Shown: in pieces, positions 850 through 27,861 of the stretch
Layout of the letters: each line of letters starts with the position of its first letter
Numbering within the stretch: the stretch's first letter is position 1
Program-made: the position numbers and the translations under genes
The notes under the pieces: generated by a model
The model's input: only the letters and a program-made list of their open reading frames with translations
Told to the model about the DNA's origin: nothing
Databases searched by the model: none
DNA from: an uncultured Chloroflexia bacterium
GTDB lineage: Bacteria > Chloroflexota > Chloroflexia > QHBQ01 > JADMIH01
Assembly: GCA_963797095.1 (NCBI GenBank)
Contig: CAWCNY010000002.1
Coordinates: 800,001 to 864,000, forward strand
Length of the DNA: 64,000 nucleotides
Direction of reading: 5' to 3'

Positions 850-1536
850 CTAAGGTTTGTTGAAGTGCGCATCCTCCAACACGACATTTGCCTCCATCCT
901 CTCCCAGGTAAAGACCTCGTTGTGAGCGCCGTCCTTTGCCAGCTCTTGCGATTGGAACGGGAAAAGCACCCCTTCGACTTCTCTATAATCTCCATAAACA
1001 GTTTCGGTCATCAACTCATCGCCGCCATGGACGGGGCGCACAGCGCGTGTTCTTGTGACCAGCAGGGTTTCTGCGTCGAGGTAGTATTCCATCACGTTAC
1101 CGTCCGTGAGGATCACCGTGATCACGTGCTGCATGCGCCCTTCGATATCCTCCGCGCCTTTGTAGGTTGCCATGTGCCCCTTGTCCCGGTAGCCCACTAA
1201 AGGCCCATCGAACTCCGCCCCGCGCTGTAGGGCCAATGCAGGCGCGCCCGTGACATACTCGGCCTGCTTCATACCCTTCGAGGGGTTGAACTCCCAGGCC
1301 CGCGAACCATCCCAGCCTTCTTCACCTGTCACACCATTTACCGTGTACTTGATCCGAAGGAGGTTAGGCCGCATCCGCTCGCCTGAAATGAGCACCACGA
1401 AAGCCGGTGTCTCTACCCGCCCGCTCTGCGCGAGAGTGCGGATCGCCATGATCTTCTCCATACCTCCCCGCGCCTCGATATGGCGGGCGATCATGCAGTC
1501 AGCAACCTGGGTAGTGTCTTCTGAGGGGCCTGTCAC
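850..1536 (-). CDS. Hypothetical protein, LolA-like/lipoprotein-sorting-type fold
   Basis: 228 aa ORF with 'HIEARGG', 'YYLDAETLL' and 'YGDYREVEGVLFPF' motifs typical of that family. Start uncertain. Confidence 0.55.
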   Translation of the reverse strand: MTGPSEDTTQVADCMIARHIEARGGMEKIMAIRTLAQSGRVETPAFVVLISGERMRPNLLRIKYTVNGVTGEEGWDGSRAWEFNPSKGMKQAEYVTGAPALALQRGAEFDGPLVGYRDKGHMATYKGAEDIEGRMQHVITVILTDGNVMEYYLDAETLLVTRTRAVRPVHGGDELMTETVYGDYREVEGVLFPFQSQELAKDGAHNEVFTWERMEANVVLEDAHFNKP

Positions 1537-1563
1537 CGCTTCCGAACCGTGATGCTTGTTCTT

Positions 1564-1593
1564 TCTCTGTGCTCTCTGCGTCTCTATGGTGAA
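1564..1593. repeat. Short intergenic CTCTGTG/CTCTGCG-type repeat
   Basis: tctctgtgctctctgcgtctctatggtgaa, imperfect 9-nt periodicity. Confidence 0.35.
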
Positions 1594-1596
1594 ACC

Positions 1597-2772
1597 TTAC
1601 GCGTGTGCGTGGGCGACCGACTTCCTGGCCGCCTTCAATACCTCGCGTGCGATCACTAACCGCTGGATCTCCGACGTGCCCTCGCCGATCTCGGTGAGGC
1701 GTACATCTCTGTAGTATCGCTCGACGTGTGCTTCGGTGATGTACCCGAAACCACCGTGCACCTGGATCGCTTTGTGGCAGCACTCCTCGCCCACCTCGGA
1801 CGCGAACAGCTTCGCCATCGCGGCTTCCTTGGTGAACGGCTTCTTGTGGTCCTTAAGCCATGCAGCCTGGAGCACCATCAGCCTCGCCGCTTCCAGCTTG
1901 GTCGCCATGTCAGCCAGCATGAACTGCACCGCCTGGAAGTTGGAGATAGGCTGGTTGAACTGCTGCCTCTCGTTCGAGTAGCGCAACGCAGCCTCGAACG
2001 CGGCCTGCCCAAGCCCCACCGCCATCGCACCAATCGAGATGCGCCCGCCGTCCAATATCTCAAGGAACTGCCGGAACCCCAGCCCAGGCGTTCCCAGGAT
2101 CGCGTCGTCGCCCACTCGCACGTTCTCGAAGAACACAGGTGATGTGATCGAAGAGCGCAACCCCATCTTGTCCTCGTCCTTGCCGAACGACAGCCCCTCG
2201 GTGGGATTCTCTACAATGAAGCTTGTGATCCCCTTCGATCCCGAAGCGTGGGGGTCGGTCTTGGCCGTGATCACCATCACACCAGCGATGCGCCCTGAGG
2301 TCATATAGAGCTTGGAGCCATTGATCACCCATTCGCCGTCTTGCTTCACGCCTACGGTCTTTGTCCCGCCCGCGTCCGACCCGGCGTGTGGCTCGGTCAG
2401 CCCGAAGGCTCCGACCATATCTCCCTGCGCCAGCGGCATCAGGTACTTTCGCTTCTGCTCTTCGGTGCCGAACAATTGAAACGGTGCGCCTCCCAGCGAG
2501 GTGTGGGCCGCCAGCGTCAGCCCAAGCGAGCCATCGGCCCTCGATATCTCCTCGACGGCAATCGCGTAAGAGATAGTATCTCCTCCCGCGCCGCCGTATT
2601 CCTCAGAGAAAGGCACTCCCATCAGGCCCAATGCCGCCATCTTCTTGATCAGGTCATAAGGGAATTCGTGTGTCTTGTCGCGCTCCAGCGCGCCCGGAGC
2701 TACTTCTTTGTCGGCGAAATCGCGCACCGTGTCGCGGAATAGTCTGTGTTCCTGGGAAAGCTCAAAATCCAT
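1597..2772 (-). CDS. Acyl-CoA dehydrogenase
   Basis: Motifs FGLTEPHAGSD, W.INGSKLYMT, KMGLRSS, GRISIGA, QVHGGFGY, EIGEGTSEIQR; GAGG RBS. Confidence 0.95.
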   Translation of the reverse strand: MDFELSQEHRLFRDTVRDFADKEVAPGALERDKTHEFPYDLIKKMAALGLMGVPFSEEYGGAGGDTISYAIAVEEISRADGSLGLTLAAHTSLGGAPFQLFGTEEQKRKYLMPLAQGDMVGAFGLTEPHAGSDAGGTKTVGVKQDGEWVINGSKLYMTSGRIAGVMVITAKTDPHASGSKGITSFIVENPTEGLSFGKDEDKMGLRSSITSPVFFENVRVGDDAILGTPGLGFRQFLEILDGGRISIGAMAVGLGQAAFEAALRYSNERQQFNQPISNFQAVQFMLADMATKLEAARLMVLQAAWLKDHKKPFTKEAAMAKLFASEVGEECCHKAIQVHGGFGYITEAHVERYYRDVRLTEIGEGTSEIQRLVIAREVLKAARKSVAHAHA

Positions 2773-21715: not shown

Positions 21716-22452
21716 AGAAGTACCCGGTTCCTCGCCTAACTTGGTCCTGGTCTTGGGCTTGGCCTTGGCCGTGCCCGTATCTGTTGCTGTAACTACGCTG
21801 CTCGTATCCGTTCTTGTGCCTGCGCCTGCGCCTGTGGTCGTAATCGTTCGCAAATGTGCCTGCCCATCGGTGACGATATACTGCTGTTGCCACACCTGCC
21901 GCAGAACCTTCACGGCCTCCAAGTCACGCAGGTGGGGTGGAGCATCAGCAGCAGGGTGCTCAACTAAGGCAAGCAGGTGTAACCCATTCGCTCCTATCTG
22001 CTCGGCCAACACAGTGCGCTTGGCCTCCTCCTTGGGCAGGCGATATTCATCAATGAGGCGGCTGTAGCGGTCAAACCATTCGGGTGGAGTGTTGACACGC
22101 AGCCAACCGGGTGCCTCTTTGGCCAGGGCATTGAGGGCATATTGGAGGGTGCGTCCCACCAGTTCGACCCGGTTGAGGCTACGCACTGCCGCTAGAATGT
22201 GAGTGGAGTCGGTGCGCTGGCGACCTCTTGTCTTGAGTAGGCCACGCTCCTGTAAGTGCTCAAGCAGAGTATCAAGCAACAGGTGTTCAGCGTGGTTGGC
22301 GAGCAGGCGGTCGCGGAACTCGGAGAGTACGGAGAAATCGAAGCCCGGGTCGGTGAGTTGGAGGCCAAGGAGATACTTATCGAGTAAGGGAGAGCGGGTC
22401 GCCCCGCCTCCCTCCTCACAGAACCGGACAAGACCGTCGCCGATCATCCGGC

Positions 22453-25400
22453 TCAGGCTTCCACCGACTTTACTGCGGGTCTTCTACCAAATGTTGCGCG
22501 GTGGCAGACTTCGTGTAAGATGCTGAGGTTTTCCTCCTCATCTGTTCCACCGTCTGCTACCGATTGCTCATGGTGAATATGAATACGCTCTTCATTGAAC
22601 AAGTGCATTCGGCACAGGGGACATCGCCAGTGCTGCTTTGCGGCTACCCGGTATAGCTTTGACCCCACAGCAAAATAGCTTTTGCCATATCTTGTCTGCC
22701 GTGCCGCCCAGTATTCGCCCAGCGTTGGGTCGTCTGGGGATGCTGCGCCTTTGACTTTGATGTGGCGAGTAATTGGCGTCTGCCCTATCCGATACAGATA
22801 GGTCTTCGTCATCTTACCGTGCCGGTTCTTTGTCTTGGCGTAGAAGACCCAGTTGTTCCCGCCTACTCTCGTGAAGTAACGCGGAAGTACCCACCGTGGA
22901 CCCTTACCCGGGTGTCGCCGTCTCGCCCATCGGATAAGTAGTAACACTAACCGGTGGCTGAAGGTGGCGAACATCTTCTTGCTCACCCCATGCTTGTAGT
23001 AGTTCGCCCAACCCCTCAGAATCGGGTTTAGCACGTCAATCACGTCGTCGGGACCAACGTTCGGATGCGTGACCAGCCACTGCTTGATTTCACGCAGTTT
23101 GGTCTGCACCTTTTCCTTCTGGGGCTTGATTAGGCATTTCGTGCCGTAGCGACGGATGTTGAAACCCAAGAAGTCGAAACCATCTGCAATGTTGCGGATA
23201 TGGGTTTTCTCGGTGTTGAGTTCGAGTCCGCGCTCGGCCAGCCAGGCTACCACATGAGGTTGAATAGCCTCGATTTCCTCCCTCGTGGCTGCTGTTATGA
23301 TGAAGTGGAGTGGGCGGCCAGCGAGGTGCTGCTTGCGCAGCTCTTTTCTGTCCGCCTCTCCCCGAACCGGGCTTACGCCTTTCGGAGTACCCGGCTCTCC
23401 AGTGTTTTCCTTCTCGCGGCTTTCACGGCAGCAGTTTGAGTGTTGCGACCAGCATGAATGCTATCGTGGCACTCGCGACAGACCACCAGCGTCTTGCGCT
23501 TGCGAGCTGCCATCACCTGCATCCAGAAAGGCGGTTCTGCGCGTCCTTTGGTCCGTAGATCTTTGAGTGCTCGTACATGATGCACCTCGATGTTTTCTCG
23601 TGAACCACAAAGCTCACAAGCTTGTGCCAAGAGGCGTCGTTCGAGTTCCGCTCTCGGTCCGCTGATTTGTAGGGGCGCGTCGTTCAGTATTGCCTTGGAG
23701 TTGCGTGCGAGTGAAATACCGCCCCACCGCGCTATCAACGGTTTTCTTCCTTTATCGCCCTTATCACGATCGCCCTCATCACGCTCTACCCTGACTTCGA
23801 GGATTGCACGTGTTCCCTGATCTGTCCGTACTAAGGTGTGGTATCGCTTGTAGATAGATCGGACACTGATCTTGAGTTTTGAGGCCAGTGTCTGTGCCAG
23901 GGAGCGTTCCATTAGCCATTTCAGTTGGTTGAGTTTGTGAAGGTTGAAGGCCAGTCGATAGTATTCCACGAGACCCCGGTACTCCTGCTGGTATTGTGCC
24001 ACGATACTGAAGACAGCATCGTGTTCAAGTTCCGGTCGGTGGATCGGTTTGGCGTGGCGCAGATAGCGTTTGCATTTCACTTTCACAACCTCTGCTGGTA
24101 CTTTCAGTCCGATCCCGCCGTTGATGCTGCGGTGACCTCGGCGATCCAGCTTGTGGTCGTTATTGAGCACCACGATATCATAGCCCAGGAAATGCGCAGC
24201 TTTGGTCCGCGCATGGGTAATCAGCGTCTTTTCCTCAGAGAGTTCCAACTTGAGATCCTCTCGTAAGAAGTCCCGGATTGCAGACTTGATTTCCTGGGCT
24301 TCTTCTCGTGGGCCGCTGAAACCGAGTAGCCAATCATCGGCGTAACGACAGTAACGCAGGCGTCGGTAGTTGGGGTCGTGTGTGTCCAAGGAGGGGACCT
24401 GCTGCATCAGACGACGCATTTTGCAGGCCTCTTTCTTGTCACCATGTTCCTTCAATTGCCGAGCAAGCTGTTGTCGCCGTTGCCATTCAGGATTGAGTCT
24501 ACGACGGTTTCCGCACGTGTACCTGGGAAGCAGTGTCTTCTCGACAAACTGGTCCAACTTGTCCATGTAGATGTTCGAAAGAACGGGGCTGAGCACGGCA
24601 CCTTGTGGGCTTCCACTCAGGGTGCAGTGATAACGCCATTCTTCCAGGTATCCGGCTTGCAGGAGGCGTTCGATCAAGCGTAAGAAGCGATTGTCGAAGA
24701 TCTTCTCGCGTAGGATTGATATCAGGACTGTGTGGTCCAGAGTGTCGAAGCACGCTCTGATATCGCCTTCCACCCACCATTTTGTGCCTACCCACTTATG
24801 TTGGATCTCGCTTAGCGCGGTGTGACACCCACGTTGAGGGCGAAAGCCGTGTGAGGCCGGGCTGAATTGCGGTTCGTAATATGCCTGTAGGATAAGGCGT
24901 ATCACTTCTTGCAACAGCTTATCCGACCAAGAAGGGATTCCTAGCCCACGCCTTTTGGTCGAGTTTCTCTTGGCGATGTACACGCGTCGTACTGGCGTCC
25001 ATCGATATCGTTCCTGTCGTAGTGCACCGATGATGGCTTCGATCTTGGCCAGCGACATCCCATCCACAGTTTCGTCTGTTACGCCAGGTGTCATAGCCCC
25101 GTTATTGCGGTAGATATGCCCATAAGCGAGTAGATACAAGTCTGGGTTGAACAGTTGCCGGTACACGTCCTCCAATGGCAAGCCCTTCTTGCCGCGTTCA
25201 TGGATGATCCCCAGCACAGTTTCGGCGTTTCGCATCTCGCGTACCTCCCTGATTGGGTCTCACAACACCTGCCACCCTTCCCCATTGGCAACTTATCTTC
25301 TTTGCAAGGCATTGCCATGTTGCTATGTTGCTATGTTGCTATGTTGCCATGTAGACGGCTTTCCCGTCCTCGGAGTAATATGGTGGCTCCGTCGCCATGG

Positions 25401-26723
25401 GGCTCGCGCCCTGTAGGCGATCCCACATTCCCAAGGTTATGGACGTATCGAGCGTGACGTAGGTGCCTGTTCCGTCTCCTTGAGTCAGGTCGTTCCTGAC
25501 CGCCCATTGTGCGAAAGGTTCAGGCGGCGACGACTTAACCGCCCTATCACAATGGCTCCGCCAATAGATGCTATGGTCGGAGAATATTCGCTTGCATCGC
25601 TGGAGACTAAGGTTTGGGCAGTTTGGCTCTCACCATATCACGCGGGTCTTGCAGAACGATACCCTAAGCATCTTCAAGTATCTTCCGCTTCAGCAGCATG
25701 CTACTGTTCCCTTCAGCTTTCGCTTCCAGGTAAGCTGTTGACCCGGAGGTCTTGTCTTCCGTACCTCCCCTTTCTGCGAAAGGAATCCATTATCTTGGTT
25801 ATGTGGCGCACGTCGTCCGCAAAACGGATGTAACCGTAGCGTGGATTAGCCTGTTTATGTACACATCCCACCTGTTTGCCGCGCTTGTTGGTGTAAGTTC
25901 GCTGGTTAGTCCATTGACCAAGCCAGCGTTCCATACCGTCCAAGGCAATGTTGGCGAGTAATGGTGAGACGACAGAGCCTTGTGAGGTACCACTCTCAGT
26001 GGCGTGGAAGATCTCGGCCTCTACATAGCCTGCCTTCAGCCATGCTTCTATCCACTCGCGTCCCGGCGTTTGGCCAATGGCGTCGAGGATATATTCCTGA
26101 CTGATATTGTCGAACGCACCCCGGATATCGGCGTCGAGCACAAAGCTGTGTCCGTTTGCGCCCTTAAACCAGTTCCAGCATTGCACGATGGCATCATGAC
26201 AATTGCGGCCCGGACGAAAGCCATAGCTGTTCGGCTCGAATTGGGCCTCCCAACTTGGTTCCAGTGCGTTCTTGATAACTGCCTGCGCGATGCGGTCTTT
26301 GAGAGTTTGGATGCCGATCGGCCTTTGTTTGCCATTGGCCTTAGGTATATATATCCGCCGGGCTGGTTTGACCTGTCGTGGTTTGTACTCCGGCATCTCG
26401 CGGATCACTTGCGTCCTGGTTTTGGCGGTAAGAGCAGTCTGACCATCAATGCCAGCCGTTTTCTTGCCGTGATTGTCCATGGTCACTCTTCGCGTTGACA
26501 GTAGCAGGTTTGCGTAGCTGCGCATCATCAGCTTCTTCAGGCTGCGCACCTGATTCCACTGACCCGCTGCGGTCGCACGATAAATCCTTTGTCTCAGGTT
26601 CCTGACCCGATTGTTAACAATAGCCCAGTCAATAGCGTCCCAATCAATGGGAGTGCCTTGTTTGGGTATCTCGCTGAAAGCAGATCCTGGCGTTCCGATG
26701 TCAGAAGTGACTCTATCTTGCAC
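22453..26723 (-). CDS. ltrA: Outer intron RT/maturase/HNH protein, two exons (26723-25812 and 23304-22453), about 587 aa when spliced
   Basis: N-terminal WDAIDW...LRQRIYRA, SYGFRPGR, DADIRGAFDNI, IRFADD|FIIT, GFDFLGFNIR, LNPILRGWANYY; C-terminal CPLC...HIHH...LHEVCH. Confidence 0.92.
23305..25811 (-). mobile_element. Inner group II intron (IIA/mitochondrial-like type)
   Basis: 5' GTGCG at 25811. Domain V GAGCCGGGTACTCCGAAAGGCGTAAGCCCGGTTC. Ends ...ACTCCAC at 23305. Removing it restores the outer RT frame. Confidence 0.93.
23373..25235 (-). CDS. ltrA: Inner intron RT/maturase/HNH protein (intact, 620 aa)
   Basis: SHGFRP, EGDIRACFD, GSPQGAVLSP, RYADDW; maturase X domain; CELCG...EVHHV...VCRECHDSIH; GGGAGG RBS. 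Confidence 0.95.
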   Translation of the reverse strand: MRNAETVLGIIHERGKKGLPLEDVYRQLFNPDLYLLAYGHIYRNNGAMTPGVTDETVDGMSLAKIEAIIGALRQERYRWTPVRRVYIAKRNSTKRRGLGIPSWSDKLLQEVIRLILQAYYEPQFSPASHGFRPQRGCHTALSEIQHKWVGTKWWVEGDIRACFDTLDHTVLISILREKIFDNRFLRLIERLLQAGYLEEWRYHCTLSGSPQGAVLSPVLSNIYMDKLDQFVEKTLLPRYTCGNRRRLNPEWQRRQQLARQLKEHGDKKEACKMRRLMQQVPSLDTHDPNYRRLRYCRYADDWLLGFSGPREEAQEIKSAIRDFLREDLKLELSEEKTLITHARTKAAHFLGYDIVVLNNDHKLDRRGHRSINGGIGLKVPAEVVKVKCKRYLRHAKPIHRPELEHDAVFSIVAQYQQEYRGLVEYYRLAFNLHKLNQLKWLMERSLAQTLASKLKISVRSIYKRYHTLVRTDQGTRAILEVRVERDEGDRDKGDKGRKPLIARWGGISLARNSKAILNDAPLQISGPRAELERRLLAQACELCGSRENIEVHHVRALKDLRTKGRAEPPFWMQVMAARKRKTLVVCRECHDSIHAGRNTQTAAVKAARRKTLESRVLRKA

Positions 26724-27861
26724 GTCAGTTTGGTTCCTTCACATTAGTTCTATCGTCAGAAGCTAGCTGGAAGTCAGCCGCCTTTCGGCGTGGGGCAAAT
26801 CTTGAAAAGAACCCCTATCCCGCGCATTACTGCGGGCCTTCGCTTGCTCCAGCGTCTTTTACCCGATGAGTAATTCTGCCTTCCTTACGGTCGGCTTACT
26901 CCGCATGCCAAGTGGAGAACTCAACGGGCTTACCGTAGTTCCAGATGTTGAGATGCGTCCAGGGAAGGTCCTGCCTATGCTCCGGTGGGAGTGTGTCCTG
27001 TCGTCGAGCAGCGACTGGATTTGCTCGACCACCCACTTACCATTTTGGTGAGAGTGTCTCAGCCTTATTGCACTCTTGCCGAATCACGAAGCTTTAGATG
27101 GCAGTTCACTTGCGTTGACCTATCTGACTTCCCCTTGCGCATGACCAGGTTTAGGCTACCAGTCAGCGGCGCTTGCGTGGCCTGCATTCCACCAGGTTCA
27201 TTGCTTACTACTGGAGTGGCCGGGGTCAGAGACCCTTTTACGTGGGGACAGTGGGACAGAATCCACTGGGAGAGGGCTAACTCTCCACTCGATGGAGTTA
27301 CCTCCTTACATCTAGCTTAGCTACGTCGCACCCAGTCAATCCGGCTGCGAACAGCGTCGGCAGCCTGGCGGTCGGTGAGGTTCTCTATGAACTGCATGAT
27401 CAGCACAAGAGCCAGTCGGGTAGGGCAATGGGCAGGCTGGCCACGTTGGGGGAAGAGTTGAGCAAACAGGGGGTCGGAGAAGATGGACCGAGCTGCTCAT
27501 AGATGCGCATGTACAGGTTGCCTTTTGGAAAAGCAGCCCGCGCCACACGTTCAGTCTCTTCGGGGATCTGGTATACGATCAACGGGTGCAGGCACATGGC
27601 AAGTTCCTCCTCTCGCACTCTCTCAGCGGACGGGACAAGTGGACACAGCGTACAAGGAACGGGTGAATAGGTGTGACCACAATTGTACAGATGCAAGGAC
27701 GCTGTGAAAAGGCGAGTTCCCGGACTGCTCTTTGGGAGGACAAACCTTCTGGGCGACAATTCGCCAACGGCATCATTCTCCAAGTATTGAGAAGTCCACT
27801 TCTTGCCCTCAAGCCTCTTATAGCAAAACAATATTGCGTAAAAATTCACCCATTTGGGTAC

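Follow-up and report, generated by a model that had tools for sequence, protein, structure and literature searches.

In the group IIA intron Ll.LtrB, intron-binding site 2 (IBS2) lies at positions -12 to -8 and IBS1 at positions -6 to -1 relative to the insertion point. Nested group II introns were reportedly described from Methanosarcina acetivorans by Dai and Zimmerly in 2003. The exons flanking the nested introns of that archaeon hold no coding open reading frames (ORFs), according to a passage of a review (PMC4424553). In the TeI3-in-TeI4 twintrons of Thermosynechococcus elongatus, inner and outer introns are independently mobile, and the ORF-less inner introns are located between the first and the second ATG of the host ORF (passages of Mohr et al. 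2010, PMC2882425). In organelles, twintrons in which the inner element interrupts an intron-borne maturase include Lycopodiaceae mitochondrial atp9i87g2, whose inner introns lack a maturase (passages of Zumkeller et al. 2020, PMC7049729), and twintrons of the Porphyridium plastid (passages of Perrineau et al. 2015, PMC4476101). In both, as those passages state, inner splicing is required to restore the maturase ORF. Here we analyze a twintron in a 64,000-nt stretch of DNA from an uncultured Chloroflexia bacterium (assembly GCA_963797095.1, contig CAWCNY010000002.1, positions 800,001 to 864,000), which we refer to in its entirety as the window. In this twintron, one group II intron lies inside the reverse transcriptase (RT) gene of another, directly behind the codons for the catalytic motif F-A-D-D.

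We consider it very likely that the inner element is a complete and probably mobile IIA (LtrA-like) group II intron, belonging to a lineage that homes site-specifically into DNA for the RT motif [Y/F]-A-D-D-F of other group II introns. This intron may still be active at present. A first-pass annotation, made from the letters of the window, had proposed that a hairpin loop of the inner intron matches the two Asp codons of another intron's RT and that the element parasitizes other introns while sparing its own gene. The first of these ideas, and the parasitic habit, agree with what follows, while the means of self-avoidance had to be revised.

Nested architecture and the guide loop

Three genetic elements are nested on the minus strand: an insertion sequence (IS) transposase gene, an outer group II intron with its own domains V and VI (D5/D6), and a complete inner intron with precise boundaries (Table 1). 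The first bases of the inner intron, GTGCG from 25811, directly follow GAC GAC, and the intron sits between the F-A-D-D codons and the following Phe codon. It splits the outer RT ORF in frame; the exon translations end in YIRFADD and resume with FIITAAT, and predicted splicing of the inner intron would restore the outer RT reading frame.

The inner element has the GUGYG start of a group II intron, D5/D6 at its 3' end, an RT/maturase ORF in domain IV, and exon-binding site (EBS) loops, EBS1 and EBS2, that pair with the 5' exon. An Rfam search at E <= 1 matched D5/D6 and no family for domains I to IV (D1-D4). The best Protein Data Bank (PDB) match of its intron-encoded protein (IEP) was LtrA of Ll.LtrB (5g2x; E = 5.6e-121), which covered residues 24-593, whereas the next-best RTs in that database aligned with the RT fingers and palm region alone (~1e-35). 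Two features place the intron in the IIA/ML class, namely this LtrA-type IEP and recognition of the 3' exon through delta, which directly adjoins EBS1 on its 5' side, instead of through a distinct EBS3.

The guide is displayed by the hairpin GGCGG-UUAAGUCGUCG-CCGCC (25543-25523), and its AAGTCGTC (25536-25529) is the sole copy in the window. Complementarity to the target does not by itself distinguish this lineage. A match between EBS1 and IBS1 is generic to group II introns, and the complementary 8-mer alone carries no significance in a sequence of 64 kb: chance predicts 1.38 matches, and at least one occurs in 72 of 100 shuffled sequences. Both points favor a one-off insertion, in which EBS1 matches its own 5' exon as it always does, the match to the Asp codons is trivial, and the element has no preferred target. 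Because the 8-mer is not improbable by itself, we tested its position and covariation.

The position of the loop was consistent between a single-sequence fold and an alignment. In the minimum free energy (MFE) fold of the first 572 nt of the intron, the loop tops a 7-bp stem above an 8-bp stem (z = -4.65). We then modelled positions 196-318 of domain I. Among 16 aligned sequences, 99.0% of cells pair in the four helices around the EBS1 and EBS2 loops, compared with 36-59% when the partners are slid by one to three columns. Compensatory changes occur in 19 of the 24 pairs of these helices, a result that none of 500 shuffles equalled. For helices 3 and 4, which form the EBS1 hairpin, 98% of cells are paired and 13 of 15 pairs show compensatory changes.

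The loop also changes together with the DNA it faces. In related introns, the loop homologous to 25538-25528 tracks the 5' exon (exon/loop: CACGAGT/ACUCGUG, CACGACG/CGUCGUG, and ACCTTCA/UGAAGGU). The 64 rows in which the exon is readable yielded 55 unique intron/site pairs, and in these the best loop 6-mer reached a mean score of 5.36 of 6 against its own IBS1. When exons were shuffled the mean was 4.05 and the maximum 4.38, so that none of 2,000 shuffles was as high. Three loci that pair poorly with their flanks (L013, L062, and L079) were left out of this EBS1 table. In addition, the dinucleotide directly 5' of EBS1 changes in step with exon positions +1 and +2 (AA/TT, GU/AC, GA/TC, and AG/CT), which, judged from sequence, is the delta-delta' pairing of IIA-type introns.

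Table 1. Coordinates of the twintron features within the window
Feature	Position	Strand	Basis or detail
IS transposase gene hosting the outer intron	5' exon end 27332; 3' exon 22378-20801	minus	DUF772 + DDE_Tnp_1_6; 3' exon holds the DUF772 end and DDE_Tnp_1_6 (Pfam; junction read from sequence)
Outer group II intron, whole	27331..22379	minus	Interrupts the IS transposase gene
Outer intron, 5' part	27331..25812	minus	Starts GTGCGAC at 27331; RT ORF 26723-25812 with RVT_N and RVT_1 up to FADD (Pfam)
Target in outer RT, TTT GCG GAC GAC (F-A-D-D)	25823-25812	minus	IBS2 25823-25819; unpaired -7 at 25818; IBS1 25817-25812
Inner group II intron, complete, IIA/ML-type (LtrA-like), 2507 nt	25811..23305	minus	GTGCG start and D5/D6 end at the junction
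EBS2 loop CAAGCGAA	25594-25587	minus	Terminal loop of a GAUG/UAUU hairpin; preferred EBS2 GCGAA 25591-25587; overlapping GCAAG 25595-25591
Hairpin presenting delta and EBS1	25544-25522	minus	Atop an 8-bp stem, 25555-25548 / 25511-25504; MFE fold, RNAalifold, pair counts
Delta (AA, 25536-25535) and EBS1 (GUCGUC, 25534-25529); loop AAGUCGUC	25536-25529	minus	Complementary to GACGAC/TT (slash, insertion point)
Inner IEP, intact, 620 aa: RT, maturase, AI2M-like HNH endonuclease	25235..23373	minus	Pfam RVT_1 7.2e-32, Intron_maturas2 1.7e-11, AI2M-like_HNH 1.3e-16
Inner intron's own TAC GCC GAT GAT TGG (Y-A-D-D-W)	24344-24330	minus	Sequence read
Inner intron domains V-VI	23399-23305	minus	Rfam RF00029, model positions 1-77 of 77, 54.5 bits (gathering score 40); match ends exactly at 23305
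First 3'-exon codon TTC (Phe), then ATC	TTC 23304-23302	minus	delta' = TT (23304-23303)
Outer intron, 3' part	23304..22379	minus	Remainder of RT ORF, 23304-22453, with RVT_1 end, GIIM, HNH (Pfam)
Outer intron D5/D6	22456-22379	minus	Rfam RF00029, 47.3 bits; match end is the predicted 3' splice site

Recurrence and proposed reading of the target motif

To characterize where relatives of the inner intron reside, we searched one genome per species with two queries, its IEP and a paralogue from the genome of the window that is 68% identical to it. The search yielded 394 confirmed relatives, of which the best 80 were kept as loci (numbered L below). Intron ends were placed by nhmmer profiles, and domain I was then aligned. 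Some contigs end at the intron and provide no 5' exon (L020, L023, L032, L046, L050, L064, L068, L074, and L085). The loop AAGUCGUCG was found in 8 of the best 80 loci. One of these (L010) has masked flanks, and the other seven lie directly behind TAY GCN GAY GAY, with a 3' exon that starts TTY wherever it is readable. They come from Brasilonema (L006 and L007), metagenome-assembled genomes (MAGs) of Chloroflexi (L008), Gemmatimonadetes (L009), and Chloroflexia (L022), and Ktedonobacter (L011 and L012).

The genome of the window (G000) contributes three further cases, all at [Y/F]ADD. Besides the window copy, a second copy of the inner intron is found on contig C3 (569575-572081; 99.96% identical), and a third intron at the same motif, intron B, occupies C3 115831-118378 and is 69% identical. 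As an independent sample, we looked for the loop motif directly in metagenome contigs, a scan that returned at least 119 stretches. Among the matches listed, seven have domain-I homology; the six of these with a 5' exon all lie behind R-Y-A-D-D, while L143 has no 5' exon. Another 112 of the listed stretches had no domain-I homology (nhmmer E <= 1e-5) and were treated as chance matches. Altogether, all 16 loop carriers whose 5' exon can be read are inserted at [Y/F]ADD (three in this genome, seven in other genomes, and six among the metagenome matches listed), and none of the 16 is at another site. This recurrence in different genomes, phyla, and host intron families leaves the one-off insertion described above with a very slim chance of being correct.

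The hosts of these introns are themselves diverse. The N-terminal parts of host RTs are 36-70% identical. Six hosts have GIIM and HNH C-terminal parts, and a scan of the N-terminal part of three of these confirmed RVT_N in all three. The Ktedonobacter host, on the other hand, is an ML-type IEP with Intron_maturas2 and AI2M-like HNH domains, and four metagenomic hosts resemble ML-type IEPs by eye. Judged by domain content, the host RTs span at least two IEP domain families and are not one element, and relatives of the inner intron occupy the homologous site in host genes that are not orthologous.

Taken with the fold, these insertion sites bear out most of what the first-pass annotation had claimed. 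The hairpin, the guide loop, GCAAG, and the intron's own TAC GCC GAT GAT TGG are all where it placed them; the loop occupies the EBS1 position and acts with delta in the covariation of a IIA-type intron; and tabulating insertion sites and EBS1 across homologues, as it had suggested, revealed that targeting the RT motif of other introns is a property of the lineage.

For EBS2, a different 5-mer emerged. The EBS2 loop matched positions -13 to -7 of its own exon with a score of 4.36, compared with 3.61 for shuffles, none of which (0 of 1,000) was as high. The annotation had put forward GCAAG, which is in the correct terminal loop. However, in eight relatives compared, the pairing 5-mer is GCGUA facing UACGC, located 3-4 nt further 3' than GCAAG, and GCGUA is also the pairing 5-mer in five of six metagenome introns among the matches listed. 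The window homologue of GCGUA is GCGAA (25591-25587), facing UUUGC. In the window copy, GCAAG and GCGAA each form four Watson-Crick pairs and one G.U pair (4.5 of 5), and the relatives make GCGAA the more likely EBS2.

We compared the target sequences of 14 sites. No variation occurs at positions -12, -9, -8, -6, -5, -3, and -2. At -11, 13 of the sites have A and the window copy has T. Positions -10, -4, and -1 vary between C and T only, with T at -4 in 11 sites and at -1 in 5 sites, while -7 varies among A, C, and G. Positions +1 and +2 are T in all eight sites with a readable 3' exon. Each of the variable target positions is the third base of a codon, namely that for Tyr, Asp, Asp, or Ala. 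A single EBS1, GUCGUC, is found at GACGAC, GATGAC, GACGAT, and GATGAT sites, that is, at all four spellings of Asp-Asp.

These patterns suggest how the guide could read a coding motif. Three elements of domain I would read positions -12 to +2 by base pairing. EBS2 (GCGAA here, GCGUA in most relatives) would pair with the Tyr or Phe codon and the first two bases of the Ala codon, EBS1 with the two Asp codons, and delta (AA) with UU, the first two bases of the Phe codon. A G in the guide faces -10, -4, and -1, where it can pair with C or U, and the fully degenerate third position of Ala (-7) falls in the unpaired gap between IBS2 and IBS1. With G opposite the C/T third positions and -7 unpaired, the guide can pair with any synonymous spelling of the motif. 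The guide would thus recognize the peptide motif whatever its synonymous spelling, with rG.dT pairs presumably tolerated at insertion. By analogy with Ll.LtrB, the excised RNA would act with the RT/HNH protein, reverse-splicing into further YADD-F sites, where target-primed reverse transcription would copy it.

An alternative to repeated homing is a single ancient twintron, in which one entry into a YADD site was followed by inheritance or by movement with the host intron. The two near-identical copies in this genome fit such composite spread, given that their outer-intron flanks are 100% identical and the inner introns 99.96% identical, and L011 and L012 are likewise twin copies. Yet the hosts are far more diverged (36-55% identity in the N-terminal part) than the inner IEPs, which at the YADD loci are 65-72% identical to that of the window, and GIIM-type and ML-type hosts have no detectable C-terminal similarity. 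Moreover, an unoccupied allele of the outer RT exists. In an 817-nt DNA contig from metagenome run X3, which shares about 96% identity with the outer RT, 23304 adjoins 25812 and exactly 2507 nt are missing, which makes the contig an empty-site allele with the predicted boundaries. Runs X1, X2, and X4 gave short contigs only, and the empty-site evidence is this single joint in X3. We regard a single ancient entry as improbable, and favor site-specific homing by a lineage of introns.

Several observations weigh against site-specific homing or narrow its support. The 80 loci are the top slice of the 394 relatives rather than all of them. The two near-identical copies in this genome could reflect the movement of a single composite instead of two independent homing events. 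Eight of nine YADD-homer rows form one clade (support 92) in an IEP tree that was a quick search with SH-aLRT support only, from which short or N-containing sequences were dropped (L010, L021, L070, L075, L077, and L078), and L022 falls outside the main YADD clade. We had considered the pairing of GCGAA with TTT as a clean compensatory adaptation to an FADD host, a view that was weakened by L123, which carries GCGAA at a TAT site. Finally, T at -4, -1, or -10 could be synonymous drift after insertion rather than a sign of wobble tolerance at the DNA step.

Additional copies and fragments were noted in this genome. The second twintron copy (L004; C3:565000-575000) carries an extra insert of ~1.47 kb inside the outer RT gene, at about C3:567570-569040. 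The insert has terminal inverted repeats and a short target duplication. In the same twintron copy, the outer intron has its first 27 nt replaced. On contig C6, an ORF-less derivative of the same intron family (L003; ~680 nt, about 1003-1684, minus strand) retains domain I and D5/D6 (Rfam, 43.7 bits), and by eye the loop at its EBS1 position does not match its own 5' flank. A truncated copy comprising the first 666 nt of the outer intron lies behind the same transposase 5' exon at C4:273992-274657 (L005), and a 5'-truncated copy of intron B on C1 (L002; about 492590-494777) has the same 3' exon as intron B on C3. Domain IV of the window copy contains roughly four repeats of the 8-nt unit GCAACATA shortly before the start of the IEP (25348-25313, minus strand); by alignment, the repeat is not present in intron B or the C6 fragment.

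Possible self-avoidance and the codon after YADD

According to the first-pass annotation, the inner intron shields its own RT gene by spelling the Asp codons there GAT GAT, which would mismatch the guide. The spelling is indeed GAT GAT, and the base at -1 of the own motif is T in 9 of 10 YADD-homers. However, GUCGUC pairs with GAUGAU through two G.U wobbles, which are not mismatches, and two relatives with this same EBS1 (L022 and L134) occupy GAT GAT sites. The T's at -4 and -1 of occupied targets, reported above, point in the same direction. Protection through GAT GAT is thus unlikely, and the proposal that the intron avoids its own gene is plausible only in an altered form that involves the codon after YADD.

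The intron's own site differs from the target in having TGG instead of TTY, a difference at +2, and it has a mismatch at -11 to the EBS2 of the window copy. Among relatives, Phe follows the own YADD motif in none of 11 YADD-homers, which have Trp, Val, or Ile, compared with 53 of 63 others; L021 was left out of this table because its longest ORF contains no YADD. Occupancy in this genome has a similar pattern. Of 12 RT-like [Y/F]ADD sites that passed a motif filter, the three followed by TT all carry an inner intron, whereas the nine followed by TGG, GTG, CTG, or GAA are all without one. We also noted that the unoccupied sites, on contigs C1, C2, C3, and C5, have Leu (twice), Trp (twice), or Glu as the next codon, along with the Trp and Val of the hunting introns' own genes, and that the unoccupied site at C2:711868 (Y-A-D-D-E) resembles the occupied host of L008.

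We infer from these comparisons that the intron may be immune to itself through the non-Phe codon after its own YADD. More broadly, Trp, Val, Ile, Leu, or Glu in place of Phe could weaken delta-delta' pairing and so protect an RT gene, providing both self-avoidance for the intron and escape for its hosts. The counts among relatives and within this genome favor this explanation, and the occupancy pattern fits immunity through delta', confounded by shared ancestry. Several points count against it: the YADD-homers are one or two clades, which confounds the comparison phylogenetically; a sister clade that homes into domain V also has Trp, as do L061 and L062, which do not home into YADD; the genome count includes few independent sites; and Trp keeps the U at +1, so that only one delta pair is lost. 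On balance, we put protection by the codon after YADD at close to, but short of, an even chance.

Neighboring lineages and comparison with known systems

Relatives of the inner intron were also noted at other conserved sites. A sister lineage of the YADD-homers lies inside domain V of other group II introns (L015, L016, L017, and L024, with L020 and L085 assigned by loop only), in hosts from the Actinomycetota, Bacillota, and Gemmatimonadota. Joined to each other, the exons that flank these introns form a canonical D5 hairpin of 34 nt, which has a terminal loop of 4 nt and a bulge of 2 nt, and the insertion is 2 nt 3' of the loop. Cyanobacterial relatives (L038, L039, L041, L049, L053, L075, L077, and L078) are found in other RT genes, where they interrupt RT motif 3 between L-D-I-E/A-K-C and F-D-R-I-x-H. 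Most of them have GCAUUU as EBS1 and the Microcoleus copies have ACAUUU, with G or U again facing the third codon positions -1 and -4. Two Ktedonobacter copies (L030 and L031) interrupt an RVT_N-like motif (I-Q-K-R-I, then Y-R-A). Relatives from Dehalococcoidia and Tepidiformaceae lie at further conserved protein motifs: a D-E-x-H-E box (L042-L045, L059, and L084), a G-T-G-K-T P-loop (L076 and L080), and a C-F-G-C-G zinc-finger-like motif (L021, L026, and L073). L076/L079 seem to contain two copies of the intron in a head-to-tail arrangement.

As a tentative proposal, rather less likely to hold than to fail, these introns could belong to a cross-phylum guild of LtrA-like introns that hunt other group II introns. 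One lineage would read Y-A-D-D-F in a manner proof against codon degeneracy, its neighbors would home into domain V, RT motif 3, and RVT_N, and both hunters and resident RTs would escape by replacing the Phe after YADD, in the manner of an arms race.

Homing elements persist by targeting sequence that cannot change, and the target here is the catalytic center that every autonomous group II intron needs. Because all autonomous group II introns depend on that center, one guide could recognize introns of many classes and phyla. A natural nucleic-acid guide that tolerates synonymous codon variation would bear on the host range of retroelements and on targetron design, and the system offers a testable conflict of parasite on parasite, with possible escape via the codon after YADD. 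There is also a consequence for annotation, since RT genes split at YADD resemble pseudogenes. Published intron-finding pipelines overlook the outer intron of twintrons, as noted in a passage of one report (PMC8919778).

Twintrons and homing into intron ORFs are known, and a lineage that homes into YADD codons is a variant of these phenomena. Full-text literature searches returned no description of such a lineage; supplements and the intron database lay outside their scope, and a prior description is possible. The known work likeliest to overlap concerns the nested introns of M. acetivorans, which are archaeal, unlike the bacterial twintron described here. In contrast to the ORF-less inner introns of TeI3-in-TeI4, the inner intron of the window encodes its own IEP and splits a catalytic motif. 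The organellar twintrons come close in splitting an intron-borne maturase, but the passages on them describe no YADD-specific site or lineage that crosses hosts (PMC7049729 and PMC4476101). Among mobile introns, the inner element is most like Ll.LtrB and its protein LtrA: its IEP matches LtrA over nearly the full length, with Intron_maturas2 and AI2M-like HNH domains, and its target is read by EBS2, EBS1, and the adjacent delta. Unlike Ll.LtrB, however, its natural target is the RT active-site codons of another intron rather than a cellular or plasmid gene, and its guide places G opposite synonymous third positions.

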